Below are positions 19,230-50,722 of a DNA stretch of 64,000 nt, piece after piece. The position numbers and the translations under genes are program-made. The notes beneath the pieces were generated by a model. It saw only the letters and a program-made list of their open reading frames with translations, did no database searches and was not told the origin of the DNA. Source of the DNA: Dipteris shenzhenensis (lineage: Eukaryota). The DNA is taken from NCBI GenBank assembly GCA_047967505.1, contig CM106538.1; one strand, 5' to 3'. Numbering within the stretch: the stretch's first letter is position 1; each line of letters starts with the position of its first letter.

Positions 19230-22200
19230 AACACAAGAAAAATCAAATGGTATCATGGGACGAACAGCTCAAGCTTTTGGTTCCCAGAATTCGTCAGTTC
19301 GGACGTCGGTATGATTGTGGGTGTATAAAAATAGAGCATCGTATGGACGTCGGTATGGTCATCAATATATACCCATGCCCATACCAATAACATATGGTTT
19401 TTTGAGGGTTTATAGTTTAGGGGTTTGGGTGAATTTTGGGGGTGAGTGGGTGTTTGAAGGTATTTAGGGGGGATTTAGGCCCTGGGGTGTTTGGTGGAAG
19501 AGAGGGGATTAGGGGGATTTGGTTGTTTGGGTGTTTGACTTGACTTGGGGGGATGACTATGGATGTGTGTAGGTGGAGAGGATGAGTAGTGATAGCTCAT
19601 CGAACAGGGGGCCACCTCTCGAGAGTTTGGAGTGGCTTCGTGAGAGATTGCCTTGTCCTTGCACACATTGCAGGAAAGGGTTTTGTCATCAGCATCGTAT
19701 TGCCATGTGCCACTTGCAGATGTATGGAGAGGCACCACCAGAAGATGATATTGGTCGACATGCTACTGCACCATCGATAAACCAATGATATTTGAATGAT
19801 TCATGGATATTTATATTGTTGTCCTTGTTGCACACAATAACCTTATGTCATTATATTATACAAGATGAGGAGAGCAGTGGGGGAGCAAGTGCATCACCAC
19901 CACAACTCAATCAAGATGATCTTGAGGATGATCCTCTAGAGGAGGACCTGGGTATGGCGAACATGATGGATTCTTTTTTAGAAGGTACCACAAGAGATGG
20001 GGGTGAGATGTCTGAGCATGAAATCGTGATGGCATCAACACTGTTATATGATGGTGTGAGGATGTCAAAACTATGAGCTTACCTCTCAATCTTGAATTTG
20101 CAAGCAAAGTATGGATGGTTAGACACAAGTGTCTCAGCCTTGATGAGGTTTGGAGCCTTGATCTTAGTATCTCATTCCTAATTGCTTTGATTAGTTAGTA
20201 TCTCATTCACAAGTTTCTTGGATATGCAAATTATAGTAGGTTGCTCCAGAAAATGTTCCCTATCCCAAATACCATGCCCAATTCCAGAGATGAAGCCAAG
20301 AAGATGTTGATGATGGTTGGGATGTATTATGACACCATACACACTTGCCCTAATGATTGTATTTTGTTTTGTCACGAGTATGGCGATTTGGTTAATTTCC
20401 CAGAGTGTGGAGCACATTGCTATAGATAGGACTTGCTAGGGGAGAGGATCCCAGTGAAGGTCCTAAGACATTCTCCCATCATCCCTAGAATACAGCACAT
20501 GTTCAAATGCAACTTCATCGTGCAACTGATGATGATGTGGCATGCTACACACCTGTCCACCGATGACACTTTGAGGATCCAAGCAGATTGTGCTGCTTGG
20601 AAGCACATAGACAACATGTGGTCGGACTTTGTAAGGGAGCCACACAATTTACATCTTGGGCTTGCAATGGATGGTGTGAACCCTTTCAGGTTATGCCCCA
20701 CATATTGGTTGAGATGGCCATAGTCTTGGTGAACTACAATATTCCACCATGGCTAACAATAAAGAAGGGACACCTCATGCTTGCCCTACTTGTGCCTAGG
20801 AAGTACAAGGCCAAAAATATGGATGTGTACATGGCACATAGTTTCTTGCATCCATGGATCTTGATATGCCAGATGCTTGGAACATCCATAGATCCCGATA
20901 TGCCACATTGCTTGGAACATCAAGGACGATGATCGTGTAATTGTAGAGGTTCCCCAAGGTAAAGGGGTTGAAAGAAAGATGAGCAAAGAGCAAAGAGAGA
21001 AATTCAATAAGTTTTGTGTCCTCAATAGTCCCGAGATGAAAATAAGGGCGGAGAGATATAAAGAGGCCAAAACAAAAAGAATAAATGAGAGGGTGAGATT
21101 TAGAGTCATGCATAGGGGCAAGGTGCCATATCCACCAGACAGACCTTGCTCTTCTCCCTAGACACATGTCCAATGATTGGCTACAAGAAGCTCTTCGTCA
21201 CGTGAACTCGAACATGATGGAGATGACGTAACCAATCGAGAGAGGGAGCTTGCAATCGGATGTATGCCACATGTAAGATTTTAACCTTTCTACTTAATTT
21301 GGGTATTTATGATCACAATAATTACAAAATGCATCCTCATTGTTTTAATAATGTTCTTTTGTAGTACAAAAAGTATAGTGCATTGTGGTCACATGGACGG
21401 CATTTTTGTGTGGAACACATTGATTCAAGGAGAGTCACATATGATTGTGGAGTCATGGCTAAATTTGTACAAGATAGCCGAGCAAGTGCTTTTGATACCA
21501 ATCTTCTCTCCTCGCAATTAGATTATTGTGGGACCATATGTGATATCTATGAAGTTGATTTTAGAAGATTTAATATTTTCATTCTTGATGTCAAATGGTT
21601 TAGAACTATCTACAATGGTCCCAATGCTACCGTCAGGAGAGACAGCTATGGTTTCTTTGCCATTGACTCCACCAGACCCTGCCGATGAAAGTGATACCTT
21701 TGTTCTTTTAGATCATTGTGAATAGGTACATAGTAAATGAATTGATTAAAAGCTAATATCTTCATTTTCAAACAAATATTGGTAGATGCTCATATATATT
21801 TATTTTTTTTAATACTTGAGCATAAATGAATATAATTACTAGCACCTAATTTGTATCTTCAACATAGGTGGTCTTTCATCTGGATCGTTTGGATCCAAGA
21901 TGGTGGTACGTGGTCTAAGTTGCTCCTCCAAGCAAACATATTTTGTAGATAGGAATGTGGATACGGAGATGCTAGTAGAAGATCCAAATAATGATGCCGA
22001 TGAATCTAGGGAAGAGGATGAAGATGACGATATGGGCCATGAAGAAGGTGACAATAATGACACTGTAGGGAAAATTGTACCCAGGCGTCGATGAAAGGGT
22101 TGGTAGTAGTCGGTATATATGTGGGTTTAGGGGTCAGTATATACCGATAGCTATACCAATGACCATACCCACGGCTATTTTGACATCTACACTGACACCT

Positions 22201-23829: not shown

Positions 23830-24920
23830 CCTAACTAATAGGCTGCTCTAAGACTGAAGGCTCAGTAGCAAGGTCCTTACTAGTTTGCTCTTCAGTTCCA
23901 AGCACCTGACTAGTAGGCTGCTCTAGAGTCTCATGACCAAGTTCTTGGTAAGTAGGGACCTGGCTACTAGGTTCCTGACTAGTAGGCTGCTCTGGAGTCT
24001 GTAAGGTCATGGTTGAAGAACCATCTATGCCTCCTGGTAACTCCTCCTGGTCATGCTTTGCCTCTTCCATACCTTCTTTGAGTAAGGCTTCCTTGCTTGA
24101 TCCACTTGCCTGTCCTTCACCCAAGATCAATCCACTTGCGTGTCCTTCATCCAAGATCCAAGGGTGCCTTCCTCACTTTTAATTTTAAGGGAAGTGCTTC
24201 CACCTCTTTAGCCTTACCTTTACCTGTGACGTGCTGTACTACTGTAACTTCTTGCTGCCACGAACCTTCCCGTATGATGAGTGGAACCTCCTTGACTCTA
24301 GTTGACAATTGATCACCCTTATTCTTGAAGCTCTAGAGTCCTTAAAGGAGTTTGGATTAGATTACCACCACCCCTCGATAAGAAGCACATTAAGAAAGGC
24401 TGCAAGACTTGAATGGCAGTGCCTTCCAAGACAGTCATATGATTACGCAAGACTATACCATGGTATACTTTTGAAAGTAAATACCCAAATGAAGATGTCA
24501 AACTCGCATATAGGGCATCCCTTTGTGATTCTGTCACGAACAGGACCAACGTTGATCTTTTCTTATCTACCATAGGACCTTCAACAATAAACCGCACAAG
24601 TTCAACTATCCGTGACACTGCAAGGTCTTGCAATTCATCTATGAAAAATACGCATGGCTTCTCCCAAGCATGACCGCTCATTGTTATGAAATGCTCCGTA
24701 TCAATGCCATTGATGTGTGCAAATTTTGTATCATTCTCTGATAGCAGGATATCATAAGAGAAGCTGAATGGAGAACCATCATCTAAACCACCAATTGCTC
24801 TACCTTGGGTACTGGACTGCAAGGTCTTTTTCTTAATGTCCATATATTGTGTCTCAACAACCTTTGGCATTTTAGCTCTTAGATCCTTTGTTGGTGTGGC
24901 ATCTGCATCCATTGAAGCCA
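23830..24920 (-). pseudogene. C-terminal part of the ParB-like gene, continuing in frame across the gypsy insertion
   Basis: Removing the gypsy element and one TSD joins KTWARKW (36674) to LASMDADATPTK (24921) in frame. A further 200 aa follow, then frameshifted pieces lead to an acidic repeat tail at ~23831. Confidence 0.85.
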
Positions 24921-24925
24921 ACCAC

Positions 24926-26039
24926 TGTTGGCTCTTTCCTACCGCTTTCGTAGGAAGAGCTGGGTGTTCTATGTTGCAGGGTTCCGAGGCTTTTTGTCAC
25001 CTACAGATATATTAGGATTGTCGTTGTAGTATATATGTAGCTTAGGACCTCGAGTCATGTTCCGTTGAGAGACTTAGGCTTAAGTGTGGTGAGTAAACAT
25101 AATGCAAGCATGTGTAGAAGGCACGTAAACCATTGTTGTTGGGGTAATGAAGGCTTTCGCCTTCATTGGGGGTTGTAAGGTTTAGGAGGAGTTTAAGGGT
25201 TCAGAAGGAGGTTCCAGGGTTTAGAAAGAGTTCAGGGTTAGAAAGAGTTCCAGGGTTCAGAAGGAGGTTCCAAGGTTTAGAAAGAGTTCAGGGTTAGAAA
25301 GAGTTCCAGGGTTCAGAAGGAGGTTCCAAGGTTTAGAGTAGAGTACATGGTGGAGAACTCGTCTCCCTCGTAGATCATTGAGTTTAAGGGTTTAGGAAAG
25401 TATAGGAGTGGGAGAGGAAGAAGGTGTAAGAGCATGGGTGAAGTAAGAGGGAGAGGAGGAAGGAGGAGGAGGGAAGAGGAGGAGGGAGAGGGAGGAGAGA
25501 GGAGGAGGAGGAGGAGGGAGGAGGAGGGAGGAGGAGGAGGAGGAGGAGGAGGAGGAGGAGGAGGGAGAAGGGAGGAGGAGAGGGAGAGGATGGGTTGCAG
25601 GGTTGGAGGAGAGGGAAGAAGGGTTGCAAGGTTAGGACATGCTTTTGGACGTGCAGTGCAAGGAAGCATGGACACTTGAGACAAATGCTTGGAATACCAA
25701 TGTAGACTCAACACAATGCCCCAAGAGTGTGGGCTTCATTCCATTATGGGGTATTTATACAAGTTGGAGAGCTTCCCTCTCTGCATGTAACACAAAGTCG
25801 TATCACAAAGTTGTAACACAAAGTTGTGTCACAAAGTCGTAACACATTCTCTCTAGAAGATGTAACACAAAGTTGTTACACAAAGTTGTTACACAAAGTT
25901 GTAACATAAACTTGTAACACAAACTTGCAACACAAAGTTGTTACACAAAGTCGTAACATAAAGTTGTGTCTAGAAGTTGTAACACAAAGTTGTAACACCT
26001 TCTCTTTCTTCATAAGTTCATGTTGGCACAGAGTCAACA
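24926..26039 (-). repeat. 3' LTR of gypsy-like element (1114 bp)
   Basis: Near-identical to 35546-36672. Contains ~55-bp GGGTTTAGAAAGAG repeats, (GGA)n and 13-bp ACACAAAGTTGTT repeats. A PPT-like CCGGGGGTA is adjacent at 26040-26048. Confidence 0.97.
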
Positions 26040-26073
26040 TACCCCCGGATCCATTTTATTACCCGTCCTCGGG

Positions 26074-29000
26074 TTATGGCTTATTGCGATCACGTACCTG
26101 GGTTGCCATGTTTTTAGTCCAGTGGCTGTGGAACTTGTGTCGTGCCAGACGGTCCTGCTGTAGAGCCTTAGCACCATACAATTTTTGCGCAGTTTCCAGG
26201 TAGCCTGTATCCACCATTTGCTCGAACAGAGATATGTGGCGTGCCTCCAAGAAGATCACTCTTTGGTATAGTCTGCTTGTAAATCTGAGCATCAATCCGT
26301 TCATTGGGATTAAAGCTGAGTGGAGGCAAATGGGAATCAAGGTAGCAGGGGACTTCCAGAATTAATGCTAATGTTTTGCAGAATATGGCACTTTGGCGAA
26401 GGAAGCGATCAATGTTGCCGCGCATTGTTTGTTCATGCTGCTGAAGTGCTCGGATCATGGCCCCTTGGATAGTCCATTCTACACCAGAGTAGGATTCGAT
26501 CATTGGCCAATTAATGACTCGATCTTCAGCCAAAGTGTGTATGTTGGCTTCCCATCTTTTACGCCGTGGAACTGCATAGAACTTGGGATGGGTTCTGAGA
26601 CATGGAGGTGCCCGTAAGTACTCCTTTAAGAAGCTTACATCAAAGAGCTTGGGACGGCGCCAATCAGGTTGTGGATCCAATTTGCTAATCCAAGCTTCAC
26701 TTATTTGGTGTTGACGAAGATTGGTAGGAAAGTTACCCAGGGTCCATCCACCGCGAGTTTTCATATCAGGATATTTGCTCCAAAATTCCTTGATGGGGTT
26801 ACTGGGAAGTGGTATCTCATCAAAATCATACTCATCATTGGAACTTGGCATGGGTGTACGAATTGGATTATCCGGATCCTGATATTCAAAATCAAATACT
26901 GCATCATTTTCTGCTGATGGCAGCACCAGAAGTGTCGGAGGTGATGACGGGGCCGGGAGAGAAGCAGGGGACATGGGGGAGAAATATGGCTGAGTGATAG
27001 TGGCGGAAGGGGGAGCAGAGGGGAGGGGGGGAAGAAATGGGCAAATGGTTTGAGCAGCTTGGTAATCCTCAAGGGTAGGATTAGCAAGGGAGGGGAAAAA
27101 GCTAGGTGTGAGGGGCTCGTAAGTTTGGGACTGTTGGGTGAGTTGAAAATGGTGAGAGGCATGAGCAAAGAGACGATGGAGGGAATAGATGTTAGGATGA
27201 AGCTCGGGGAAGGTTAAGAGGGTGGCAGCAGCAAGGGGAAGTGAGGTTATGATGTTGGCAGAAAGAGTGGTTAGATATGGGAAGTTGGATGTGAGATAGG
27301 CCTTGTCATCGTCCGACACTTCTTTTTGCTGGTGCGATGGGATGATCAGCTGCATGGGTTGGATGCCCGTTAAGTCATGCCGTGCAAATAATAGGGATGG
27401 CCTTTGCAGCAACGGCAACAAACCTGCAATAACCCTGAGGGGAGGACTACCCATGAGGCAGGCATATGCAATGAAAGCATCTGTCCTGAGAGTTATAAAC
27501 CCGGCATGTGTAGACAGGCAGAAGATATTCTTCTCATCTTCAGACAAGTCTTGGCAAATGATGCGCAGGGTTTTAATCCCGATGGATCGTTTCCAGTCGA
27601 TTGTTGGATGAGCAGCTATGATCTTGAGTTGGAGTTGCTTCCATTGGATCAGCACGCGTGCGTGGAGGTGATCTTCCATTTGGAGAGCAGTCACAAGCTC
27701 TTCATACACCACGGTTGTGCATTGTAGTGGGCCGTCATTGGTGTTGTCTTCCAATGCCTCATTGTTATGCACTAGCAATTGGAGTTCAAGCTTGGAGATG
27801 GCTATTTTTTGGGAGTGCATCTCATTCATCTTTTCTTTGTACTGATGGTAGATGCTGGTGTATGCCTCTTTAAGCTTTTTCATTTGCAAGGTGACCTGAT
27901 GTCTTTAGTGGTATTGGACCATTGGTCCAAGAAGTGGGCTTGTAAAGTGCTGGCCTCTTGAACAGTAGCAAGTTGGTCTTTTAAGAGTCGGCATTCCCTT
28001 GTAAGCTCATCAATGCTAAAGGCACGTACTGCCAAAGATTGTTGCATGTCTTCAAGCTTGTCCTTGCAATCCTGGAGCTCGTCTTCTTTGTGAATGAGAG
28101 TGAGTCGAGCTTGTGCCACTTCCTCTGTTTGTTGCGCATGTGCAGTTGTCAGGGAGTTATAGGAGGTCTGTAGGATTGCCATTGCTTCGACTGCCGCAGT
28201 CAGCTGTGTTTGACTTTGATGGAGGTTGGAGGTCACATCCCTTACGGCCTTCTCTTGAGCTTGGAGAGCCTGGTTCATGCGCACTTCTTCTACCTCCTTC
28301 TCATCTATCTGTGCCCGAAGAGCCTTGACCTCGATGGCGATTGCCTGGAATTGGTCTTCGATTTCTGATGCCGTCTGCCTTTCCAATTCTCTTGCATATG
28401 CTTCCTTAGCCAAGCTAGTGAAGAGTTCGGACATTTGGATCATTTGGCTAGCTTGATGCTGGAGAATGACAGATGGTGATGAGGTCTGGCGATATTGCTG
28501 ATACAAGTGGTGCCCATGTAGCCATCCCGAGGATTCTGTAGTACTTGGGGGAGGTTGTTCCAATGGCATTTCACTCCCTTGTGGACAATAGTCATACTGC
28601 TGATCTGGCACGAGCTCTCCTTGGGGCTCATCGACTGGCATGACGTCGATGGGCGGTTCGAGTGCTGATGTGGTCTCAAGCTCTTCCTCAGGTTCGGGTG
28701 CCAACCTTGTCTCGAGCTCGGGTGGGTGCTGTTGGGGGAGACTTAGTGGTTGCAATTGTGCACCGAGCTGAAGCATTTCCTGAGGCAATTCTACAATCCT
28801 GCTTTCCAGAATAGGTACTTCTGTTAAGGCATCTGTACTTATCAATGTGATAGCTGGAGCAGTTGATGATGGCTCCCATACTGGTGAGAAGGGTATGTCC
28901 AACTCCTCAATTGGCTTTGGAGACTGGGGCAGAGTCATTTCTCTTTGTTGTAGTTCCTTTTTGATGATGATAGCCAATAAGTGCGGAATTTTACATTTCT

Positions 29001-29352
29001 GGCCTGAAGAACCATCGAGTTTTTTGGTAAAGAAAATGACAAAGTGTTGGACCCAGTCTTGTTTGAGCTTCCTACTCAGCAAAACAAATGTGCGGAGTGG
29101 AAGGGAGCGTTCCTTGCCGTTCTTGATTCCCAGGATGGTGGATAGAAATTGTGCTGCTTCCTTGAGGTGAGGGTCAAGGATTGTGCGAAGCAAGATGCCA
29201 TCTCTATGGATCAGGGTACCCTTGGTGAGGAGAGACTGTACTTCGATAAACTTTGCATCCGCAGACCTTTTAGGGTATTCGCCACCTTGCCTTGGCAGAG
29301 AGAAAGCCCTTTGAATGACTGTACTGTCGAGGATAATGTTTAGTGGGCTCTG
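26074..29352 (-). CDS. Unknown accessory region of the gypsy-like element (coiled coil, Pro-rich segment, unknown C-terminal domain), in frameshifted pieces
   Basis: ORFs 27880-29193 (open back to 29352), 26168-27889 and 26074-26340 overlap at short frameshift junctions. No YxDD, RNase H or HHCC/DDE motifs were seen. Confidence 0.7.
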
Positions 29353-32253
29353 CTATACAGTGATTGTACCGTACTTGCCATCTGTTGCATTGCTGGAGTA
29401 GTAAGAGTGGAGAAAGTCCTTGATGTAGGTGGTCATGATAGGACTATCCTCCAAGGATTTGAGGCTCTCATGCAAATTGCCTAGACCCCGTTGCTCTAAG
29501 TAAGATGTTGCTTCCTGGGAAAGAGCATAAGTCGAGGTGGGTGGCCAGACAAGTTCCAATGATTGGGCCTTGTTACCAGTTGTGCACGCCGGCTGTGACT
29601 GGGGTAGCATAGTTGCATTTAGTAATTTGTTAGGCTCTTCTTGCCTTTCTTTTTCTGAAGTCTCTTGATCGAGCTTCATCCGCACATGTGGCTTATATTT
29701 CCGAAACTTCTTACGTTGGGAACTGTGGGGTAACTTTTCCACTGGTAAGGTGTTTCCAAGTAAGGGTTCATGTGCTGCACATACTCCTTCCAGTCCTTCA
29801 GGGGACCATTCAAGAGGTGGTGGTTTTGACTTTGAGGGGACTGCCTTTGTAAGATACAATTCCACAATCCTTGTTTGGACTCGTTCGAATTCATTGAAGT
29901 GCTCGGCCTTGGCTTTTCTGCGATTTCCTCCTGCAGCTTTCTTGCGGGATCTTCTGCTGTTATTCAACTGTGGAGGTTCAATTTTTGGGAGCTCAACTGC
30001 CATTAGGGCATGGAGAATGGCTAGGTCATTATCAAAGATTTGATCTTCAATTTCAGCATTCGCAGCCTCTGTTTCAAGATCCCAAGGAAAATCTGAGTCA
30101 TCATTGGTATGGGTACCTTCTTCAGGTTCATTTTCCCATTCGAGGTCAGCCATAAAGAAAGGCATCTCTACATCGATTTGTTCTTCATGTGTCGGTGGAG
30201 GATCGACCTGTAGTGCGTTAACATCTATCTGTGAGAAGATGGGGTCTAATGAATGGCAGTTGTCGATGGTTGCCAATGTTTGTATCCAGTTATTGACATT
30301 GCTTTGTGAGTCACCTGCTATGGCATGCTGTTGCAAGGGATCTGATTTGCTCGAGATTGTCGTGGAAGATGTGTCATCCAATGCTCTAGGAACAATTGGT
30401 TTAATAACTCCTGTCCCCACATTCACCCTGACTGCAGTATCTCGATTCTGGATTGTCAATCTATTAGTTCCCCAGTCATGGAGGACTGATGCTTCCCGTA
30501 ACCAAGGACGTCCCAGTAAGATTTGATAGGATTTTTTGGGGAGATCCAAGATTGTGAATTGAAGGGAAAAGCGGACTCCTGCGATCTTTGTGGACACGCC
30601 ATTCACTATTCCCAAGGGTTTAGCCCGTGAATCATCGGCAAGGCGTATGTTGAAATTAGCCTTTTGCATTGGTGGAAGACCCCATTCTTCGTAGAGCTCC
30701 TTTGATAGGACATTGACACCTGCTCCACCATCCACTATGGCTTGGACTTCATTATATGCTTTGTGGTTCAAAGGCACAGTGATGTTGCGTATGTCATCTC
30801 TCTCACCCATCCGCACAGGGATATCTTCAATGTCGTTTATAGGTGGAGGGGGATTTGCGAGTTCAATCCATCCTTTGAAACTCTCCCAGAGATTGGGACA
30901 ATTTCGTAAGAGGATTCCGATGGGAATTGACACAGGGCAACTCAGGATGCTTGAGAGTGCAGCTCCTTCAAGTTGACGTGGCGGTACATTCTGTTGTGGA
31001 GTCTGTTGTTGGAACAAAGGCTCGAGTACAGTATCAATACTTTGTGGGGCCAAGTCATGGATTGGGTCTTGAGCTTGTTTCTGAGCCTCAAATTGAGCTT
31101 GTTCATTTTGAACCCATTGCTGAAGTACCTGAAAACGAGCCTTCTCCACCTCTGCATTCGGGAATGGAGCTTCTTGTATTCGAGGCTCGGGAGTGGATGT
31201 GGATGAGCTCGGCTGCTCATTGCTTGGCGGAGGTGGAGGCACTTGTGCTTTCTTTCTCAGAAGTCGCTTCGGTTGGATTGGAATGATAGGGTCCTTCGTG
31301 GCCTCTTTCTGTTGGCGTGTAATTACATTGATAGGTTGTGACCTTAGACTTGCTGGACCCAGACTTTGATGGTCCACCCCAATGATGCCGATGGGGACGT
31401 CAGGCTTAACCTCTGTTTGTTCTGGGACCTTATTTTTCATGGGACAATCCATACAGGCATGTCCTATGCCACAATCTCTGCAAAGTGGTTGGAAAGTAGC
31501 TGGGCTACCGCGATGAGGGCACTCTGCAATTCTATGATTTTCTCCACAACCGTAACACTTGATTGGTGCGCGAAATGTGTTGGGTCGCACTTGATTTGCA
31601 TAGACTGGTATTAGACCCTCTGCACCTTCTACATAGTACACTGGGTACTCTGCTTCATACTCAAATAGCGAGTCTACTTCCTCGGCTTGTAATTGATGTA
31701 TGGGAACTGCCGGAGGAGCTGGATTTGGTGCTCTTGGATACGGTCGTGGATTTGGATTCCTGAGTAGTTGTGGGACTTGTGTCCGAACGGGAACAGGATT
31801 TAGCCTCGGAGCTGGGGGGGCTTGTGCAAGTGCCGGTTGCCTGTATACTGGCATGGGTGCCGCTTGGTATTGTGGTGGTCGAGGCGGATTGTTGCGCATG
31901 TTGAAGATACAACTGGTCTCATCATGGCCGCCGACGACACAGATATGGCACCACAACCGTGGCGGTGGATTTGCTTGTGCATTGATTCTTGCTCTTAGGA
32001 TTGGGCATTCATTTGCTGTATGATTTGCCAAGCAGTGTGGGCACCAGACATTTTCTCGCCGTGGATATGTTTGAGTTGGCGGCTGAGACAAGTGAAGTTT
32101 TTGATCCATGGCCTGCATCATATCTTCTTTCAGCTTCAAGGTCATGGCCTCGAGGCGATCTTCATTGGATGTTTCGGCAATGTCCTTTGATTTACCTTTT
32201 TTCGAGTGCTTATCTCGTGTATTGGACCTGGCATCATCACTGCTAGTGTCTAG
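29353..32253 (-). CDS. Gag C-terminal part with 4 CCHC knuckles, retroviral-type aspartic protease and unknown extension
   Basis: 930-aa ORF, open upstream to 32253. Knuckles are CPHCLANHTANEC, CHICVVGGHDETSC, CYGCGENHRIAEC and CRDCGIGHACMDC. The protease motif AIVDGGAGVNVL...ILLGRPWL lies at ~30500-30740. Confidence 0.9.
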   Translation of the reverse strand, partial: LDTSSDDARSNTRDKHSKKGKSKDIAETSNEDRLEAMTLKLKEDMMQAMDQKLHLSQPPTQTYPRRENVWCPHCLANHTANECPILRARINAQANPPPRLWCHICVVGGHDETSCIFNMRNNPPRPPQYQAAPMPVYRQPALAQAPPAPRLNPVPVRTQVPQLLRNPNPRPYPRAPNPAPPAVPIHQLQAEEVDSLFEYEAEYPVYYVEGAEGLIPVYANQVRPNTFRAPIKCYGCGENHRIAECPHRGSPATFQPLCRDCGIGHACMDCPMKNKVPEQTEVKPDVPIGIIGVDHQSLGPASLRSQPINVITRQQKEATKDPIIPIQPKRLLRKKAQVPPPPPSNEQPSSSTSTPEPRIQEAPFPNAEVEKARFQVLQQWVQNEQAQFEAQKQAQDPIHDLAPQSIDTVLEPLFQQQTPQQNVPPRQLEGAALSSILSCPVSIPIGILLRNCPNLWESFKGWIELANPPPPINDIEDIPVRMGERDDIRNITVPLNHKAYNEVQAIVDGGAGVNVLSKELYEEWGLPPMQKANFNIRLADDSRAKPLGIVNGVSTKIAGVRFSLQFTILDLPKKSYQILLGRPWLREASVLHDWGTNRLTIQNRDTAVRVNVGTGVIKPIVPRALDDTSSTTISSKSDPLQQHAIAGDSQSNVNNWIQTLATIDNCHSLDPIFSQIDVNALQVDPPPTHEEQIDVEMPFFMADLEWENEPEEGTHTNDDSDFPWDLETEAANAEIEDQIFDNDLAILHALMAVELPKIEPPQLNNSRRSRKKAAGGNRRKAKAEHFNEFERVQTRIVELYLTKAVPSKSKPPPLEWSPEGLEGVCAAHEPLLGNTLPVEKLPHSSQRKKFRKYKPHVRMKLDQETSEKERQEEPNKLLNATMLPQSQPACTTGNKAQSLELVWPPTSTYALSQEATSYLEQRGLGNLHESLKSLEDSPIMTTYIKDFLHSYYSSNATDGKYGTITV

Positions 32254-32986
32254 TCATGCCATCTTCGATGTCAATGGCTGCCGCATGAGCAGCACTGAAT
32301 GTTTCATAGCTACTTATCTTTTTCATCTCCTTGCGGATTTTCTTTCTGAGGCCTGCTATGAACCATGCCGTGAGGTGCTTTGCATCTGGGCGTGGGTCAC
32401 ATTTGGCGATCAATCTCTTCATCTTTCCCAGGTATGTGCGTACATCTTCCCTCCGGCCTTGTTCGATCTTGCTGAGTTGGAGAGCGGGATCATCTTGTAG
32501 CCTTTCCGTTTGAAAGCGACGTTTGAATTCGGTTTGAAGTAGGTCCCATGTGGCACGTTCTTCCACAAGAAGGTCGAGGTACCATTCTGACGCCTCATCA
32601 GTTAAGGCCATTGGAAACCAAGCCACCTTAGTTTCATGGGATTGATCACCACCTGCTCGACATGCGGCATCAAAATGTTGGAGGAAGCGAGCAGGGTCTC
32701 CCCTACCATTATATTTGGGAAGTTCCAGTTTTCCCAAGGGGCGTCGGCCGTGATTGTTGTGATTTCGTCGATTGAAGAAGTTGTCAGCCTCGGCATCGAG
32801 CTCGATGTCCCCATCATGCTCAGGACGGCGTCCAGCCATGTTGGGGCGTGGAGGAGTTAAAGGAAGTTGTTGAATTTCAGGGGGGAATTCGGGGTAGAGG
32901 ATTGGCAGGGGCAATTGTTGCAGTGGAGTAAGTTGCGGATTGGGCGAGCGTTGGAGTCGAAGTCGTTGGCCGGAACGTAACTGCAT
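32243..32986 (-). CDS. Retrotransposon Gag capsid domain
   Basis: MQLRSG start, then LPKYNGRGDP..FLQHF, LTDEASEWY, TWDLLQTEFKRRF, QGRREDVRTY and FIAGLR: the Retrotrans_gag pattern. Confidence 0.92.
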   Translation of the reverse strand: MQLRSGQRLRLQRSPNPQLTPLQQLPLPILYPEFPPEIQQLPLTPPRPNMAGRRPEHDGDIELDAEADNFFNRRNHNNHGRRPLGKLELPKYNGRGDPARFLQHFDAACRAGGDQSHETKVAWFPMALTDEASEWYLDLLVEERATWDLLQTEFKRRFQTERLQDDPALQLSKIEQGRREDVRTYLGKMKRLIAKCDPRPDAKHLTAWFIAGLRKKIRKEMKKISSYETFSAAHAAAIDIEDGMTRH

Positions 32987-33439
32987 GCAGATGGTGCGTG
33001 ATTTGCCAAGGGGATCGCTACCCCAAGGGTGGGCGTGGAGGTGGTGTCGTTAGGAGAGTTAGAGTGATGTTAACATGTGTAGGGACCGTCGTGTTAATAA
33101 TGTGCCTAGGATTGTCCTACGTGTGTAGGGAAATGTGATGGTGCAGACGGATCGTTAATCGGAGGTCGCGGCGTGAAAATACGAGTGAATTAATGTAAAA
33201 TGAGGCCCACACGGGGGCGCGAACGAACGTGTGCTAGGGATGCCGAAATGGTGTGCAATGGGTTGGAAAAATACCCCGTAACGTGGTGTTTCCGTGTGTG
33301 AAATCTGGGTTCAAACGGGGTTCAATTTGGGTCCCAAACGGATGAGTTTCGAGGGGTTTAAGGAGGGGTAAATTTGGCGTTTGGGGGGTCCTAATGGTGG
33401 TGTGAATGGACTTTAAGTCCAACCGAGGGGTTGAAACCA

Positions 33440-33730
33440 AGTGACTCTAGTTAGAGTAACTAACCTAGATCCTCCCAGTTACTGTAACTGGGAGGTTTAA
33501 CTAACTGTAGTTAGATACTAACTGTAGTTAGATACTAACCTAACTGAGGGCTAACTAAACTAACCTAGCCTCAAGTACTACTAACCTAACCTACGTAGCT
33601 AATCTAACTGAGGTTAACTAGCTAACCTAGGGTTAACTAACCTAACCTAACTGTAGTTAGTACTAACCTAACTGTGGTTAAACTAACCGTAGAGTTAATG
33701 TTAGGTTAGGGTTAGTTTGGTTAGGTTTAG
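33440..33730. repeat. Low-complexity CTAAC/GTTAG repeat block in the gypsy 5' internal region
   Basis: Dense ctaac, taact and gttag units in both orientations. Confidence 0.8.
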
Positions 33731-33949
33731 TTTTTTTTTTTTTTTTTTAATGTGGGGGGGGGCTGCCCGACGGCGGTGCCCGGAGAGAGGGGGGGGGGGG
33801 GGGGGTTGGTTTGACGCGGCGGGGGGAACGGGGGAGGGCGAGGGGGGTGCGAGGGGGGTTGCGAAGGGGAGGGCGAGGGGGGTGCAAGGGGGGGTGCGAG
33901 GGGGTTTGCGCGGGCGGGGGGCGCGGGGCGGGGTAGGCGGGGGCGGGGC

Positions 33950-34205
33950 GGGGTAGTTAGCGGGGCGGCGTCGCGGTCGCCGCGGGCGGCGGCCGGTGGC
34001 GCGCGAGGGCGGCCGGTGGTGCCGGCGCCGGGACGGGGTAGTTAGCGGGGCGGCGTCGCGGTCGCCGCGGGCGGTGGCCGGTGGCGCGCGAGGGCGGCCG
34101 GTGGTGCCGGCGCCGGGACGGGGTAGTTAGCGGGGCGGCGTCGCGGTCGCCGCGGGCGGTGGCCGGTGGCGCGCGAGGGCGGCCGGTGGTGCCGGCGCCG
34201 GGACG
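33950..34205. repeat. GC-rich tandem repeat (~85-bp unit, ~3 copies)
   Basis: ggggtagttagcggggcggcgtcgcggtcgccgcgggcgg..ggccggtggcgcgcgagggcggccggtggtgccggcgccgggac at ~33950, ~34035 and ~34120. Confidence 0.9.
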
Positions 34206-35525
34206 GAGGGCGCGGCGCAGGTGGGCGCTGCGGCGCGCCACCGCCGGCGGAGGCGCTGCGGGGGCGCCTCTGTTGGGCGCCGCCGCGGTGCCGTGAGCGG
34301 GGGCGGGCGGGGCTGGGGGGTTGGGGCTGGGGGTGGCGGGCGGTTAGAGATAGGGGGTGGGGTAAGGGGGAGGGGGTAAGGGGGAGAAAGAGTAGAGGGG
34401 GGGTTAGGGGGTGGAGGGGTCGGGGGTAAGGGGGAGGGGGTAAGGGGGAGAAAGAGTAGAGGGGGGGTTAGGGGGTGGAGGGGTCGAGGGTAAGGGGGAG
34501 GGGGTAAGGGGGAGAAAGAGGAGAGAGTGAGAGAGAGAGGGGGTGGGAGAGAGAGAAGAGAGAGAGAGGGAAAAAAGGGGAGTGGAGAGGGAAAGGAGAG
34601 AGAAGGTGGAGGGGGAGGTGAAGATGGAGGGGGAGGGGGGAGGTGGTGGAGGGGGAGATGAAGGGGGAGGGGGAGAGGGGGAAGGTGGTGGTGAGGGGGA
34701 GGGGGAGAGGGGGAGGTGGTGGTGGAGGGGGAGGGGGAGATGAGAGGAGAGGATGGTGGTGGAGGGGGGAAGGGGGTGGTGGAGGGGGAGATGAAGAGGG
34801 AAGGGGAGGTGGAGGTGGAGGTGAAGAGGGAGGGGGAGATGGTGGTGGAGATGGAGGGGGAAGGGGGAAGAAAGAGGGAAACAAACTTGAAAGACTGAAA
34901 TCGAAAAGCAGGGAGAGGTGATCACCTGATCGCTCTCCAAGTCTTTCTCGATGTAACGGGATTGTCGCGGAACAATGGACGGTGGGTGGAAGGCTAGGTC
35001 ATCGCTGCGAGAAGGGCTCGATGACACTTACATGGCGAGGATAGGAGTAAGGGGGCGGTCGATGGAGAGGGAGGAGTGTCTTGCGTGGGGCTCGGAAGGT
35101 GGAAGAGAATGGAGGCAAAAAGTGAAAGATGAAGAATGAGGGGGGTGGAGTAGGTTTTTATAGGTTTGGATTTTAGGTTTAGGGTTTAGGTTTAGGGTTT
35201 AACCCTAAACTCTTCCCGAGCCATAACTCTTTATGGAGAGCTCGGTTTGCCTTTCTGTAAAAAGGTAAAATGATCATAATTGAAAGCTCTACACAACCGT
35301 GTCCACTACCTAGCCTAATTGTACATCATGTGGCTTTTATTTAAGAAATTAAGAAAAATTCTTAAGGCAGTAACCCAAAGTGGATGTTTGGGGTTGATAT
35401 GTTTGGCTAGATTTGGATAAATTTTTACTCTCCTTGCCCTTGAGTGGTATGTGCATGAAAGTTTGAAGTAGTGACTTGTTTTACACCTACCTACGCATGT
35501 TTACTCGCTACTTGAGACGCTAGTC

Positions 35526-35543
35526 TCCCCGGCAGCGGCGCCA
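35526..35543 (-). promoter_or_regulatory. Primer-binding site, Athila-like (tRNA-Asp type)
   Basis: Minus strand reads TGGCGCCGCTGCCGGGGA, 2 nt inside the 5' LTR end. This is one mismatch from the Athila-type TGGCGCCGTTGCCGGGGA. Confidence 0.85.
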
Positions 35544-35545
35544 AA

Positions 35546-36672
35546 TGTTGGCTCTTTCCTACCGCTTTCGTAGGAAGAGCTGGGTGTTCTATGTTGCAGG
35601 GTTCCGAGGCTTTTTGTCACCTATAGATATATTAGGATTGTCGTTGTAGTATATATGTAGCTTAGGACCTCGAGTCGTGTTCCGTTGAGAGACGTAGGCT
35701 TAAGTGTGGTGAGTAAACATAATGCAAGCATGTGTAGAAGGCACGTAAACCATTGTTGTTGGGGTAATGAAGGCTTTCGCCTTCATTGGGGGTTGTAAGG
35801 TTTAGGAGGAGTTTAAGGGTTCAGAAGGAGGTTCCAGGGTTTAGAAAGAGTTCAGGGTTAGAAAGAGTTCCAGGGTTCAGAAGGAGGTTCCAAGGTTTAG
35901 AAAGAGTTCAGGGTTAGAAAGAGTTCCAGGGTTCAGAAGGAGGTTCCAGGGTTTAGAGTAGAGTACATGGTGGAGAACTCGTCTCCCTCGTAGATCATTG
36001 AGTTTAAGGGTTTAGGAAAGTATAGGAGTGGGAGAGGAAGAAGGTGTAAGAGCATGGGTGAAGTAAGAGGGAGAGGAGGAAGGAGGAGGAGGGAAGAGGA
36101 GGAGGGAGAGGGAGGAGAGAGGAGGAGGAGGAGGAGGGAGGAGGAGGGAGGAGGAGGAGGAGGAGGAGGAGGAGGAGGAGGAGGGAGAAGGGAGGAGGAG
36201 AGGGAGAGGATGGGTTGCAGGGTTGGAGGAGAGGGAAGAAGGGTTGCAAGGTTAGGACATGCTTTTGGACGTGCAGTCCAAGGAAGCATGGACACTTGAG
36301 ACAAATGCTTGGAATACCAATGTAGACTCAACACAATGCCCCAAGAGTGTGGGCTTCATTCCATTATGGGGTATTTATACAAGTTGGAGAGCTTCCCTCT
36401 CTGCATGTAACACAAAGTCGTATCACAAAGTTGTAACACAAAGTTGTGTCACAAAGTCGTAACACATTCTCTCTAGAAGATGTAACACAAAGTTGTTACA
36501 CAAAGTTGTTACACAAAGTTGTTACACAAAGTTGTAACATAAACTTGTAATACAAACTTGCAACACAAAGTTGTTACACAAAGTCGTAACATAAAGTTGT
36601 GTCTAGAAGTTGTAACACAAAGTTGTAACACCTTCTCTTTCTTCATAAGTTCATGTTGGCACAGAGTCAACA
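35546..36672 (-). repeat. 5' LTR of gypsy-like element (1127 bp)
   Basis: Partner of 24926-26039, with one extra 13-bp unit. Minus-strand TATAAAT at 36373-36379. Confidence 0.97.
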
Positions 36673-38593
36673 ACCACTTTCTAGCCCATGTCTTATCAAG
36701 GAGTTGACCTAGGCTAAGTGCTTTCTTCTTATCCACATCAATTGACTTGCCAGCTAACTCATCATCAAATTTCAATAAAAATAATAGTGCCGAGAGAGCA
36801 GCCTCACTTTGAATCATTCAGGTGACCACTTCATCTAAGTTGCTATGCTTGCTCTTCTTTCCAAAGAAGCAGTCACCACTTAGGATCTTCTTGCATACTT
36901 CTTCTATTATTGCATCTGGAACAAACCTTAAAGCTCTCCACCAAACAATAGACATCGGTTTCTTTATTTCTTTCCTCTGAGTTGCAATGTGCTCTGGTGC
37001 CTCAAAGGATATCTTTCCTATTTCATATGCTTGGCAAACATCCACGATGCTCTGAAACACTGAGTCCTCACAGAAGACAATGCAGGTAACATCCCTGTAT
37101 CTTGCAACGGCGGTGTTCAAATCCTTTGCCTCAACCTTATTACCTGGTATGCCTTGCGTATTGCTTACAACACCTTTCAAGCATCTATAGAACCGAGTCC
37201 TCTTTGCCATGTACTCCGATGTAGGTCTCCTGCCCTTCACTGTTTGTGGCTTTCCACAGCCCATCCATAACTCCCTTGCCTTTATCAAGATCTCAGAAAG
37301 AGAAGAGCTTTTTTTCAACCTAAATGAAGCAGAATTCAGCCTCTCTGATTCTAGAATGTACTTCGAGTCATCATTAAATATGCATATATGACAAATGACT
37401 CGTTGGAACTTTTCCATCCACTCAATCTGTGGCAAGTTTCCTTTTCTTCCCTCATCAAGGGCGATCCTGCAAGCCTCACAAAAGTGTTTCCCATCAATGG
37501 GCTCAAACCTGCATCTTTCTAAGAATCTATTCTTTGCCAGCATGTATCTTTTCTCGATGTCACTCCCATATCGGCTTTGGTACAAAGCCTCTCCATGAAC
37601 AAAGTCACTCCTTCTAAAGTTCTCAAAAGCATCAAGAAAGTCCACGCGCTTTTGAAATGTGACATCAGGCAATGTAGGATCATCTTCTTGAAGTCTCTTA
37701 AACGCCATAGGATGAAGAGTGATATTAGTGGCAACGGGAGTTCTCGTTTTCCTTGTATCTTCATACAATTTGTGTGCAAATATCTTATCGAGCTTTCTTT
37801 GATTTGTGAACAATGAAGCTCGATCAATAAGCATTGTGGCCAGGCTGAATTGTGAAAATCCCCAAATGTATCCCTCATCCTCTGGAGGATGTAAGTCCGC
37901 CACACTTATAGAAAAGTCTTCGAGACTTGTATCTTCTTCTTGCTGATCTTTCTCTTCATCGCTATCCAATTTTTCACCTGGTTTTAAATAGCCTGCACTT
38001 GAGCGATCTCCATGTGGAGTAGGAGTTATTTTTGCTCTCTTTCTGGGAATAGCTATAGCACTTGAGTCTGCTCCACGATCACTCCTTCTTGTTCCTGTAG
38101 TTGCAGCGGTCGATGGCGTAGGTACAGTTGGAGATACTGTAGTTACACTTGTTGGAGTTACCGGAGTTACCGCCACAGATATTGATGGTACTTGAGGGTT
38201 ATATGTTATAGATGGCATACTTAGTGCTGCTGAAGGTTCAACACCACCACTTGGAAATGCATCCCACATTTTCTTCAATGCTTCTAAGGCATTAAGTAAT
38301 TCTTGGGATCCCTCAATTGAACCTAGTAATGGCTTCAAGAAGTGCTTCGGAGTAACTCGTAACTTGTAAACCACCTCGTCATTCTTTCCTTGGCACACAA
38401 TTTCTATCAAATTGTTTTCTTTAATATTGATGTTTGATACCATGCCACCATTTCTTACTGCCTCTGCAGAATATTTCGGGCTTGATATGTTCTCTGAAGT
38501 GATCACCAAAAAATACTTTGATTTGCGCTCCATAAAATACCAAGCATGCTCAATGTATTTGAAAGACACCTTGGAACCAAAACTGGAAGCCAT
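36673..38593 (-). pseudogene. N-terminal ~640 codons of a large protein with ParB/Srx (DGQHR-like) motif pattern
   Basis: 601-aa ORF with a likely ATG at 38593 after an acceptor-like TTTTTCAG at 38609. There is a single TGA at 36818-36820, then the frame continues to the TSD. Motifs NQRKLD...FEPIDGKHFCEAC...VICHICIF..D...ESERLN lie at ~37330-37860. Confidence 0.75.
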
Positions 38594-38844
38594 GGAAGCT
38601 ATAGTTTTCTGAAAAACAATCAAAAATAAAAAATGAGAAATACAATGATTTTCAAACTCAAAATATTAAATAATTTTTAATTAAATATTCTTTTAAGTTT
38701 TATTTATTTTTAATTTTTAAAATAAAATATTTTTTTCTTTTTTAATTATTTTATTTTAATTAATTAGTTTATTTTTATATTTAAAATTTAATTTAATTTT
38801 TTGATTTTTTTTAAGTTTTATTTATTTTAACTTTTTTAATTTTG

Positions 38845-40467
38845 ACGGGACAGGACGAAGGAAAGCGCGGGGAAGGGGGAGTGGGGGGAGCGAGAGGAGA
38901 CGACGGTGGGGACGAGGAGGGGGCGTGGGGCAAGGGAGAGATGGAGGGGGCTCGGGCGGGGAGGGGGAGGCGGAGGGGCATTGCTGCCCCGTAACAGGTG
39001 AGCCCCTCCCCCTCCCCGCTCGCACTCCCTCCCCTTGCCCCACGCCCCCTTACCCTCCCATGCCCACCCCTTGCCCGCCACCTTGTGATGTCCCCCTCCC
39101 CGCCCCTCGCCCGGCCCCTTGCCCTCCCCATGCCCACCTCTTCCCTCAGCCCGCCCCGTGGGGGATCCCCACCTGTTGCGCACGTAACAGATGTCCTCCC
39201 CTCGCCCGCCCCCTTGCCCTCCCTGCCCCTCGCCCGCCCCACGGCCCCCTTCCATCCGCCCACCCCCTTCCTCTCCCCATGCCCCCCCTTCCCTTCCCCT
39301 TGCCCCCTGTTGCGCACGCAATAGGTGAGGGGGGCATCACCCCCCTCCCCGCCCCCCTCGCTCGCTTGCCCTCCCCATGCCCCCCTCCCCTTCCCCCTCC
39401 CCCCCTCCCCTCGCCCGCCACCCCTCCCCTCGTCCTCGCCCGCCCCCTCGCCCCTCCTCCCCCTTGCCCCTCCCCCTCACCCTCGCTCGCCCCCTCGCCC
39501 GCTTGCCCGCCCCCCCTCCCCTTCCCCCTCCCCTCGCCCTCGCCCGCCCCTTCGCCCCTCCTCCCCCCATCCCCCCCCCTCCCCCTTGCCCCTCCCCCCC
39601 ACGCCCTCCACCCCACGCCCCCCCTCGCCCCCCATGCCCCCCCCGCCCTCCGCCCGCCCCCCCCTCACCCCCCCCTTCCCTTGCCCCTCCCCTTCCCTCA
39701 CCACACGCCCCCCCTCGCCCCCCCTTCCCTTGCCCCTCCCCTTCCATCACCACATGTGGTGAGGGAAGGGGAGGGGCAAGGGAAGGGGGGGGCGAGGGGG
39801 GGGGCGGGCGGCACGTGGTGAGGGAAGGGGAGGGGCAAGGGAAGGCGGGGCGAGGGGGGGCGGGCGGAGGGCGAGCGGGGGGGGAGGGGAGGTGGGCGAG
39901 GGGCGGGGAGGGGAGGGGGGCATCGCGGGTGCATCGCCCCCCTCCCCCCCCTCCCCTCGCCTGCCCCCTCCCCTCGCCCTCGCCCCCCCTCCCCTTCCCG
40001 CGCTCCCCCCACACCCCCCCCTTCCCTCTGCCCCCCCAGCCCCCCCCCCCGCGCGCCTGTCCCCCCCCTTCCCTCTGCCCCCCCAACCCCCCCCCCCGCG
40101 CGCCCGCCCCCCCTCCCCTCCGCCCTCCCCACACCCCCCCCAGTGCACCCGCCCCCTTCCGTCGACGGCAAGGGGCGGGCGTGGGGGGGCGTGGGGAGGC
40201 AGCGGAGGGAAGGGGGGGCGGAGGGGTCGACGGTAGGGGGCAGGGGGCAGGGGCGGGGGGGGCATGGGGAGGGCGGGAGGGAAGGGGGGGGCATGGGGAG
40301 GGCGGAGGGGGGGGGCGGAGGGGAGGGAAGGGGGAGGGACGACAAGGAGGGGGAGGGCGGAGGGAGGGGGGCAGAGGGAAGGGGGGAGCGACGACAAGCG
40401 GCAGGGGGGAGGGAAGGAAGGGGGCAGGAGGAGGGAAGGAGGAGGGAGCAGGCAAGGGGAAGGGGCC
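38845..40467. repeat. Extremely GC-rich alternating G-rich/C-rich foldback region
   Basis: C-rich and G-rich blocks are mutually complementary around the palindromic centres TCACCACATGTGGTGA (~39747-39762) and CCGTCGACGG (~40159-40168). Confidence 0.9.
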
Positions 40468-46400: not shown

Positions 46401-47149
46401 TTTGGTGTCTCCGATGAATAGCTTGGGGATCTTGTTTTTGGAGGGGGGAAGCATAAGAATGGCAACACCTTAATGCGCTGTCATTTTTCATGCTTTTGCC
46501 ACCCAAAAACAAGACCTGCAAATCCCTTGCTTAAGCTTGAATGAGCCTCTTGATTTTGGGCGTGTTAAGCCATTTTTGACCATCATACCCCCAAAATCAA
46601 GAGGCTCATTCAAGCTTAAGCAAGGGCTTTGCAAGCATTGCAAGTCCTGTAAGTGAAATCAATTAGATTAGGAATTGGCAAACTCAATTTGGGAATGGTC
46701 AGAAATACTTTGTCTTTGAATAATGCCTTGGATCATGGGATGGGGTCCCATGAACTTGCTGCTTGTGATGACGAATGGTTCTGCCCTCGACTAAAGGTGA
46801 TGTGTGTAGTAGTAAAAGGATAGCCCTCATGGAATCTCTAAGGGGTCTTGATTTTGGCCATGATTTGCACATTCTAGCACTTGAGCCATACATCAATTTC
46901 CAACACTTGAGGCATATAGTGGCTTTGCCCACGCAACGTTTCCAACTGCAATCCAAGCATCAAGCAATCTCATATTCTATATCCAGAGACATCATGAGGG
47001 GTAGAGCCTCTTTTTGGTAGTCTCACTAGCAATATGTATTGAAAAAAAAAATGTATTCAATTATTATATTCTTCCTTGCTATATGAATGCTCTTAATGCA
47101 TCCAAATTGTAGAACTACTTCAATACTACTTCTTAGTTATATTGTATAG

Positions 47150-47904: not shown

Positions 47905-47952
<48 letters not shown>

Positions 47953-48454: not shown

Positions 48455-48534
<80 letters not shown>

Positions 48535-49219: not shown

Positions 49220-49270
<51 letters not shown>

Positions 49271-49936: not shown

Positions 49937-50004
<68 letters not shown>

Positions 50005-50665: not shown

Positions 50666-50722
<57 letters not shown>

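Follow-up and report, generated by a model that had tools for sequence, protein, structure and literature searches.

A minus-strand long terminal repeat (LTR) retrotransposon of 11,747 bp occupies positions 24926-36672 of a 64,000-nucleotide stretch of the Dipteris shenzhenensis genome (NCBI GenBank assembly GCA_047967505.1, contig CM106538.1), hereafter referred to as the window. The repeat at the high-coordinate end was assigned as the 5' LTR because the genes lie on the minus strand. Both LTRs are bounded by a 5-bp terminal inverted repeat (TGTTG..CAACA). Their alignment by blastn comprised 1,127 columns with six mismatches and one 13-nt gap. The LTRs differ in length only by this gap, which equals one repeat of a 13-nt tandem array (16.6 copies in one LTR and 17.6 in the other). 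The array unit is TGTAACACAAAGT on the plus strand, and the array is located just upstream of TATAAATA in element sense. The divergence between the LTRs, K, is 0.0054 (6 mismatches per 1,114 aligned bases). Plant substitution rates are approximately 0.7 to 1.3 x 10^-8 per site per year, and K thus corresponds to a few hundred thousand years. Together with the flanking ACCAC duplications, these data support a structurally complete and young element. An earlier interpretation made from the letters of this stretch (hereafter the sequence-only reading) had described near-identical 1.1-kb LTRs and a perfect target-site duplication, both of which were confirmed, and had called the element recently mobile, which is a fair description given the value of K.

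The primer binding site (PBS) claimed by the same reading was also found. Its 13-nt core, TGGCGCCGCTGCC, has a single exact match in the window, at 35531-35543 on the minus strand, and is identical at 12 of 13 bases to the published ATHILA tRNA-Asp/Asn PBS, TGGCGCCGTTGCC. Rfam and tRNA scans of the window returned nothing, so that no tRNA gene was available there for direct comparison with the PBS. As for the polypurine tract (PPT), a G-run does lie at the right place, adjoining the 3' LTR, but it is not a textbook tract: the polypurine character of GGATCCGGGGGTA is weak and consists of a short run of five G only. The coordinates of the element's features are collected in Table 1.

Table 1. 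Features of the 24926-36672 retrotransposon and its insertion site (positions in the window; sense refers to the element)
Feature	Position	Strand	Description
Target-site duplication ACCAC, left copy	24921-24925		Read directly
3' LTR (element sense)	24926-26039	-	1,114 bp, TG..CA ends
Purine-rich (GAG)n stretch in 3' LTR	25446-25589		
13-nt tandem array, 3' LTR	25786-25998		
PPT-like stretch adjoining 3' LTR	26040-26052	-	Sense GGATCCGGGGGTA
P0005	26361-26077	-	95 aa, last sense open reading frame, ends 34 nt short of LTR
P0004	27904-26171	-	578 aa, orphan
Long coiled-coil segment	27898-28476	-	P0003 residues 293-485
P0003	29352-27883	-	490 aa, directly past TAG
In-frame TAG between P0002 and P0003	29353-29355	-	
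Post-protease stretch of P0002	29356-30456	-	Residues 600-966, acidic, Ser/Pro-rich
Aspartyl protease domain	30496-30750	-	P0002 residues 502-586
Four CCHC-type zinc knuckles	31444-32043	-	P0002 residues 71-83, 102-115, 233-245, 258-270; pattern search
P0002	32253-29356	-	966 aa; zinc knuckles, protease, post-protease stretch
Retrotrans_gag domain in P0001	32345-32617	-	PF03732, E 2.5e-13, 50.5 bits
P0001, gag	33049-32246	-	268 aa stop-to-stop; first ATG at 32986
Leader between PBS and gag	33050-35530	-	2.5 kb, pyrimidine-rich on sense strand
PBS	35527-35543	-	Sense TGGCGCCGCTGCCGGGG, 2 nt (TT) past 5' LTR
5' LTR	35546-36672	-	1,127 bp, TG..CA ends
TATAAATA in 5' LTR	36372-36379	-	Sense LTR positions 294-301
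13-nt tandem array, 5' LTR	36406-36631		Upstream (U3-side) part in sense
Target-site duplication ACCAC, right copy	36673-36677		Identical to left copy

The coding part consists of five stop-to-stop sense open reading frames (ORFs), P0001 to P0005. At E values up to 1, P0001 matched PF03732 alone and no Copia-type gag family in Pfam, whereas the Copia gags elsewhere in the window matched PF14223 best and PF03732 weakly. The zinc knuckles of P0002 were identified by pattern, and zf-CCHC was not reported by Pfam for this ORF at E up to 1. The protease of P0002 was recognized by PF13975 (E 3.8e-5, 24.7 bits against a cut-off of 28.2 bits) and PF13650 (E 1.4e-4), and its active-site stretch is DGGAG instead of D-T/S-G-A. 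According to the arithmetic of the coordinates, the chain of ORFs has four breaks. In sense order these are a shift of +1, a TAG stop in frame, a shift of -1, and another shift of +1. The first of these lies at about 32246-32253, ahead of the zinc knuckles. P0002 and P0003 share one frame across the TAG (32253-29352 = 2901 = 3 x 967), and the frame of P0005 is +1 relative to P0004. P0005 matched no Pfam family, and its coding status is uncertain. The sequence-only reading was therefore correct in finding Gag and protease, the latter with a Pfam score under the family's cut-off, and in regarding 32986-26074 as coding-like, but this interval is a chain of five ORFs and not one ORF.

The 2.5-kb leader contains tandem arrays at 33500-34870 with periods of 64, 85, 18, and others. 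ORFs in the leader were considered as possible genes and rejected; they were taken to be compositional because several frames are open at once and the translations are Pro/Ser runs derived from the tandem repeats. They matched no Pfam family.

No polymerase domain was detected. A six-frame Pfam scan of 24926-36672 covered 194 stop-to-stop ORFs of at least 35 amino acids (85 sense and 109 antisense), and the only retroelement families found in them were Retrotrans_gag and aspartyl proteases. None of the 194 ORFs matched RVT_1, RVT_2, RNase H, or rve, even at E 0.1 for sense or 0.01 for antisense ORFs. With the identical library, Copia copies in the window were detected at E 2.9e-75 (RVT_2) and about 1e-14 (rve). 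Patterns for the YxDD box of reverse transcriptase (RT), the HHCC finger of integrase, and the DAS motif of RNase H had no match in the post-protease part. Two pattern matches were obtained in P0002 ahead of that part, LADD within the protease and a His/Cys pattern at the zinc knuckles. The visible domain order is gag then protease only, an order that Copia elements also have. Outside the element, none of the 133 ORFs of at least 90 amino acids in the window carried Gypsy-type pol, and only Copia and CACTA pieces were found. The claim of the sequence-only reading that RT, RNase H, and integrase are absent was borne out by the six-frame scan that it had proposed, and the diverged RT or integrase that would have contradicted it was not found. 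Non-autonomy combined with a gag and a protease of its own is well supported.

Downstream of the protease, coding-like sequence continues for ~1,450 codons (4.4 kb) and almost reaches the 3' LTR. The longest sense ORF in this region is 578 amino acids. Across 500 mononucleotide-shuffled versions of the region, the corresponding length was 123 amino acids on average and 248 at most, which supports its being real coding sequence. GC content by codon position followed the order GC1 > GC3 > GC2 in the gag-protease part, P0003, and P0004; it departed from this order in the post-protease stretch of P0002 (GC2 0.40, GC3 0.42) and in P0005, where GC3 was highest. The P0002 stretch contains a basic cluster, RRSRKKAAGGNRRK, at residue 767, and no family was found for it.

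P0003 is made up of an N-terminal globular part (about 28873-29352), a linker, and a coiled coil. Single-sequence AlphaFold2 models predicted one helix at residues 293-485 with a predicted local distance difference test score (pLDDT) of 70-94, the pLDDT of P0003 as a whole being 54. Along this helix, hydrophobic residues occupy 35 of 56 a/d heptad positions as against 40 of 137 other positions, and coiled-coil Pfam families matched the segment weakly. The P0004 model was poor (pLDDT 35), with a helix only at residues 2-49 (pLDDT 70-81). These first ~49 residues extend the coiled coil of P0003 to ~240 residues in all. The -1 frame change between P0003 and P0004 thus falls within one structural unit and probably interrupted, not long ago, a protein that had been continuous. 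To our knowledge, the ~550-residue tail past the coiled coil has no counterpart. No stretch after the protease is convincing as a transmembrane segment; the highest-scoring Kyte-Doolittle windows of 19 residues (1.09 in P0003, 1.54 in P0004, and 1.52 in P0005) contain prolines.

Searches for protein homologues of these ORFs were all empty. The post-protease P0002 stretch and P0003 were joined, with X at the TAG, into an 858-amino-acid query (P0008), which had no match at E 0.001 among 1.84 billion representatives, and P0004 had no homologue in a set of 5.8 billion clusters. P0002 residues 1-620 found no protein relatives, nor did the gag P0001 when compared with longer proteins. Among PDB sequences there was no relative of P0004, P0008, or P0001, the best E being 0.98 (P0004). 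Pfam searches at E up to 10 with whole ORFs and seven sub-fragments gave nothing relevant, and for P0004 nothing above noise. Such empty searches are weak evidence of novelty, as the libraries may hold few plant transposon proteins. An Atlas language-model search with P0003 residues 1-160 provided one lead: the best clusters scored 0.92 with 165 of 256 features shared, the PF20167 Transposase_32 set accounted for 19 of the 30 matches, and PF03078 ATHILA for one cluster. In the Atlas calibration, 4 to 10 in 100 shuffled proteins reach 0.9 and 170 features are shown by 9 of 10 true members; these figures were measured on whole proteins, and our query was part of a protein. P0004 gave no usable match in the Atlas feature search.

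We next considered how far the breaks in the ORF chain could be the product of decay since insertion. Each LTR was assumed to have taken half of K, and 3,000 simulations were run on the interval that starts at the gag ATG and finishes with P0004 (2,270 codons). Approximately 18 substitutions and, on average, 0.72 new stops were expected, and 52% of the simulations produced one stop or more. Approximately three indels were expected in the coding part, scaled from one indel per 2,241 LTR bases. The observed breaks are one stop and three frame changes. Their number matches neutral decay, and the parent may therefore have carried one continuous ORF of ~2,270 codons, in which case this copy may have arrived with a single continuous frame for Gag, protease, and the downstream protein. 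Mobilization of an already broken parent wholly in trans is also possible. With one stop and three frame changes, this copy itself is probably no longer a protein source. The ~1,400-amino-acid accessory protein proposed by the sequence-only reading could not be made as one chain in this copy, because one stop and two further frame changes interrupt it.

The pol-less Gag-protease design of the element is already published for the Athila clade, and the element adds to that known kind a member with an unusually long orphan accessory region. In six Brassicaceae, 934 of 2,322 intact ATHILA elements are reported to carry gag and protease only, with a mean length of 8,784 bp, and the 440 autonomous ATHILA average 11,886 bp; gag-protease-only elements are the commonest class in five of the six, and an ATHILA-specific downstream ORF, presented in the available text as having no assigned function, occurs in 673 of the 2,322 (10.64898/2026.03.20.713144). 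The element described here resembles these gag-protease-only ATHILA in having gag and protease without RT, RNase H, and integrase, in its recent activity, and in a tRNA-Asp/Asn-type PBS behind an AT-rich spacer. It differs from them in length (11.7 versus ~8.8 kb), in its LTR terminus (CAACA versus TATCA), and in a post-protease region of ~1,450 codons, partly in the protease frame, and no sequence homology of its proteins to ATHILA proteins was detected. Relative to the Athila-type elements compared, an open region of this length after the protease, partly in its frame and without detectable relatives, is unusual; the literature consulted concerned non-autonomous LTR elements, PF20167, ATHILA, and TR-GAG, and we do not claim that such a region is unpublished.

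Comparable designs have been described in cereals. The Athila-clade Gypsy families RLG_Sabrina (8.0-8.3 kb) and RLG_WHAM (9.45 kb) carry gag or GAG-Pro and no RT or integrase (PMC5738225, PMC9744471). In wheat and barley, RLG_Sabrina_SA and RLG_WHAM have been called "semi-autonomous" members of a "cooperative complex" whose likely partner is RLG_Wilma, a homolog of BAGY2 (PMC9744471, PMC5738225). Their resemblance to the partner is said to be limited to the PBS, GAG, and the 3' end of the LTR, and for barley the PBS is described as the most conserved part shared by non-autonomous elements and the partners proposed for them (PMC5738225, Wicker et al.). Our element shares with RLG_Sabrina_SA and RLG_WHAM the presence of GAG and protease and the absence of RT and integrase. 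Unlike these families, which reach tens of thousands of copies and for which the available descriptions include no long post-protease ORF, it has a long extra coding region and was seen in a single copy. The division of labor between paired elements suggested by the sequence-only reading is thus a reasonable idea that is already in print (PMC9744471).

Other non-autonomous classes fit less closely. Like TR-GAG elements, the element is non-autonomous and has a gag ORF, a PBS, and a 5-bp target duplication, with a weak stretch at the place of their PPT, but TR-GAG elements are described as shorter than 4 kb, with gag as the sole ORF and no aspartic protease (PMC4350172), whereas this one measures 11,747 bp and encodes a protease and further ORFs. 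Like large retrotransposon derivatives (LARDs), it is large (>4 kb), non-autonomous, and probably mobilized in trans, but LARDs are described as having no internal coding capacity (PMC4350172), whereas this element has gag, protease, and ORFs of 490-966 amino acids. The statement of the sequence-only reading that pol-less Gag elements are usually much shorter holds for TR-GAG and fails for the Athila clade, in view of the ATHILA mean of 8,784 bp.

We consider this element, with rather better than even confidence, to be a non-autonomous ("semi-autonomous") LTR retrotransposon that is young and structurally complete and most likely belongs to the Athila or Ogre/Tat/Athila (OTA) branch of plant Ty3/gypsy. 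For the lineage taken separately, Athila or a close OTA relative, the balance is only slightly past even. Three weak, independent leads point to Athila: the PBS, the Atlas neighbors of the P0003 N-terminal part, and the coiled coil behind that domain. The ATHILA PBS, TGGCGCCGTTGCC, corresponds to tRNA-Asp and/or tRNA-Asn and is separated from the LTR by an AT-rich spacer of 3-6 bp (10.64898/2026.03.20.713144). A sunflower Athila 3' additional ORF (aORF) of 487 amino acids has a PF20167 match, described as related to PF03078, and a nuclear localization signal (PMC11728184). Athila-domain proteins of Arabidopsis are predicted to form pentamers via extended coiled coils (PMC13547354), and PF03078 is reported in 16% of Athila elements (PMC6317226). 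The Atlas lead gains some weight because published Athila 3' ORFs have PF20167 and coiled coils. Like an Athila 3' aORF, the accessory region is on the sense strand, 3' of gag-protease(-pol), and contains an extended coiled coil; the shared globular domain of Transposase_32/ATHILA ORF-1 type is here a language-model lead only. An upstream basic cluster resembling a nuclear localization signal is present in both (RRSRKKAAGGNRRK here and RGGKRKL in the sunflower Athila 14 ORF(+); PMC11728184). Unlike the 487-amino-acid sunflower aORF with its Pfam-detectable PF20167, the region has no Pfam match and its open frames are ~3 times as long. Extra ORFs and large non-coding regions are typical of OTA elements, and non-chromoviruses are reported to use tRNA-Asp among their primers and not tRNA-Met (PMC6317226, Neumann et al.). 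The general build is OTA-like, given the length of the element, its 2.5-kb non-coding leader, and the extra ORF.

Several observations weigh against this assignment. No piece of the element matched PF20167 or PF03078 in Pfam, even at E up to 10. The Atlas evidence is weak, its score lying within the range of shuffled proteins and its 165 features falling short of 170. The gag, gag-to-protease, and accessory parts had no protein matches, which leaves the lineage unreadable from a tree, since no gag/protease tree is possible when neither has relatives. PF03732 is not gypsy-specific, as the weaker matches of the Copia gags in the window illustrate, and is described as not exclusive to Gypsy (PMC4350172); a tRNA-Asp PBS is listed for non-chromoviruses in general (PMC6317226). 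The LTR end is CAACA + TT and not the TATCA + ATT commonest in Brassicaceae ATHILA (10.64898/2026.03.20.713144), the ATHILA junction seeds (TATCA terminus, PPT-LTR junction) having been defined within Brassicaceae only. With its ~1,450 codons, the accessory region is longer by a factor of two to three than an Athila aORF of 487 amino acids. The protease scores under its own Pfam cut-off and has the DGGAG active-site stretch. The decay estimate takes its indel rate from one tandem-array event, and this rate probably overstates indels in coding sequence. A single copy also gives no sign of a multi-copy family, of selection on the ORFs, or of a partner.

The absence of pol could instead reflect a one-off deletion, in which an autonomous family with a 3' accessory ORF gave rise to this copy, or its immediate parent, by loss of a ~3-kb RT-RNase H-integrase segment. 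Only one copy is visible in the window, it already has one stop and three frame changes, and internal deletions are the usual origin of non-autonomous derivatives (PMC5738225). Deletion of pol as such, with a 3' accessory ORF retained, fits as well as the view of the sequence-only reading that RT, RNase H, and integrase had been "replaced". We judge a one-off event unlikely. No pol remnant was found in any frame, and recurrent, amplified gag-protease-only forms are the commonest in five of six Brassicaceae (10.64898/2026.03.20.713144). The frame also remains open for 367 codons past the protease, across the presumed junction, and for 490 more after a single TAG, an argument that is weak in that an in-frame junction arises by chance in one case in three. 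That the post-protease ORFs are themselves an RT, an RNase H, and an integrase diverged past recognition is extremely improbable. They lie where pol is expected, and ~1,450 codons is roughly pol-sized, but few domains are as readily detected as RT and integrase, as the Copia copies of the window demonstrate (E 2.9e-75 and about 1e-14), none of the 194 ORFs matched them, no YxDD-type, HHCC-type, or DAS motif occurs after the protease, and ~240 residues are plain coiled coil.

Other origins for the accessory region were also considered. The region could be a host gene or gene fragment acquired by transduplication, a suggestion in keeping with the lack of any retroelement family there in Pfam and with the host domains that accessory transposon proteins often gain (PMC13547354). 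We find this quite unlikely, as a conserved host gene of ~1,400 amino acids should have relatives and the searches with the 858- and 578-amino-acid queries and against PDB were empty; the sole lead was to transposon-associated clusters in Atlas, and the region shares its strand, and partly its frame, with gag-protease. An envelope-like protein, in which the coiled coil would serve as a heptad repeat of the fusion type, is another candidate, and an env-like gene was reportedly proposed in the past for Athila, Calypso, and Bagy-2. The long heptad coiled coil would suit such a protein, and so would its placement downstream of gag-protease, as in env-like 3' aORFs (PMC11728184). This explanation is not favored, and seems very unlikely to us, because no convincing transmembrane segment was found after the protease (windows of 1.09-1.54, with prolines); the ATHILA ORF, moreover, is given no assigned function in the available text (10.64898/2026.03.20.713144).

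If the element is a semi-autonomous member of the Athila/OTA branch, as we prefer, its life cycle might be as follows. Transcription would start from the 5' LTR, which carries TATAAATA at sense position 294. Family members with intact frames would provide Gag and protease for the particle, into which the element RNA would be packaged, and RT-RNase H and integrase would be supplied in trans by an autonomous element whose LTR ends are compatible and which is primed by the same tRNA-Asp/Asn. The requirements in cis are present, namely LTRs, a PBS, and a G-run at the PPT position, and the element integrated with a 5-bp duplication. The post-protease part would represent the 3' accessory ORF of the lineage, with a putative globular Transposase_32/Athila-like domain, a predicted coiled coil of ~240 residues that probably oligomerizes, and an orphan tail of ~550 amino acids, and loss of the pol segment may have placed this ORF beside the protease. 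A bolder proposal is that the lineage gave up pol and makes a Gag-protease-X polyprotein of ~2,270 codons, in which X would be a lineage-restricted, oligomerizing protein of ~1,450 residues selected for riding into, or steering, particles that contain the partner's enzymes. We put this forward as a speculative and rather unlikely possibility, in keeping with a number of breaks that neutral decay would predict and with the continuity of two of the frames save for one TAG. Were it true, the accessory module would be borne by a dependent element and not by an autonomous one. If the preferred Athila/OTA reading is right, the element would be a further case, from a poorly sampled genome, of Athila-type elements that repeatedly shed polymerase and integrase and live off an autonomous relative, keeping the capsid, the protease, and a fast-evolving accessory gene. 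Comparison of its copies across the host genome could make the accessory region useful in defining the function of the Athila ORF. The element also carries a warning for annotation, in that an "intact" LTR element of 11.7 kb can be pol-less and have ORFs that pass for orphan genes of the host.

Within the 64-kb window, there was no second copy of the LTR, the gag-protease part, or the post-protease part. Low-complexity matches elsewhere in the window (65-73%, purine-rich) involved the leader and the LTR (GAG)n stretch only, and the PBS-proximal leader had three short matches (27-50 nt, 84-93%) to a satellite-like array with units of ~720 bp. This array, at 47321-52538, consists of ~7 tandem units spaced 693-727 bp apart and 82-99% alike. 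It sits within a region bracketed by a Copia LTR-like pair of direct repeats, 40470-40749 and 58045-58324, which are 99% identical. The Copia pieces between these repeats are on the minus strand and include RVT_2 (41424-42560), rve (43113-44153), and gag with a zinc knuckle (56341-57267), so that 40470-58324 resembles a Copia element into which a large block, ~12 kb of other sequence, has been inserted. At 39263-40463 are 1.2 kb of alternating C-rich and G-rich low-complexity tandem repeats with 58% GC in that part. ORFs are open there on both strands and in several frames, and the segment resembles the leader of the 24926-36672 element at the 65-70% low-complexity level only.

The retrotransposon is inserted into coding-like sequence on the minus strand (24319-24925 and 36678-38665). 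When the element and one ACCAC were removed in silico, an ORF of 248 amino acids spanned the insertion point, in frame directly behind the stop of a 615-amino-acid ORF, P0006 (36818-38665). Neither ORF has a Pfam family or a sequence relative in PDB, and this coding-like sequence may represent either an orphan gene that was disrupted or a piece of some other mobile element.

Other mobile elements are present on the low-coordinate side. A Copia-type element at 12062-17458 (plus strand) contains, in several frames between 12918 and 16668, PF14223 gag, the Pol beta-barrel, pre-integrase, rve, SH3, and RVT_2 domains, and is flanked by direct repeats (12062-12249 and 17271-17458) that are 99% identical. 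A stretch related to this element lies at 3717-4319 (93-95% identity to 16853-17458). Two adjoining ORF pieces at 20430-20929 (plus strand) match Transposase_21 (tnp2, CACTA/En-Spm; E 6.6e-11 and 2.8e-9) and are a broken DNA-transposon transposase. Further Copia fragments were found at 1034-1661 (Pol beta-barrel, pre-integrase, and rve) and at 10730-11254 (gag). Direct repeats of 87-91% identity, ~10.8 kb apart, relate 1-1115 to 10828-11927, which suggests an older duplicated or nested arrangement of 1-1661 and 10730-11927.

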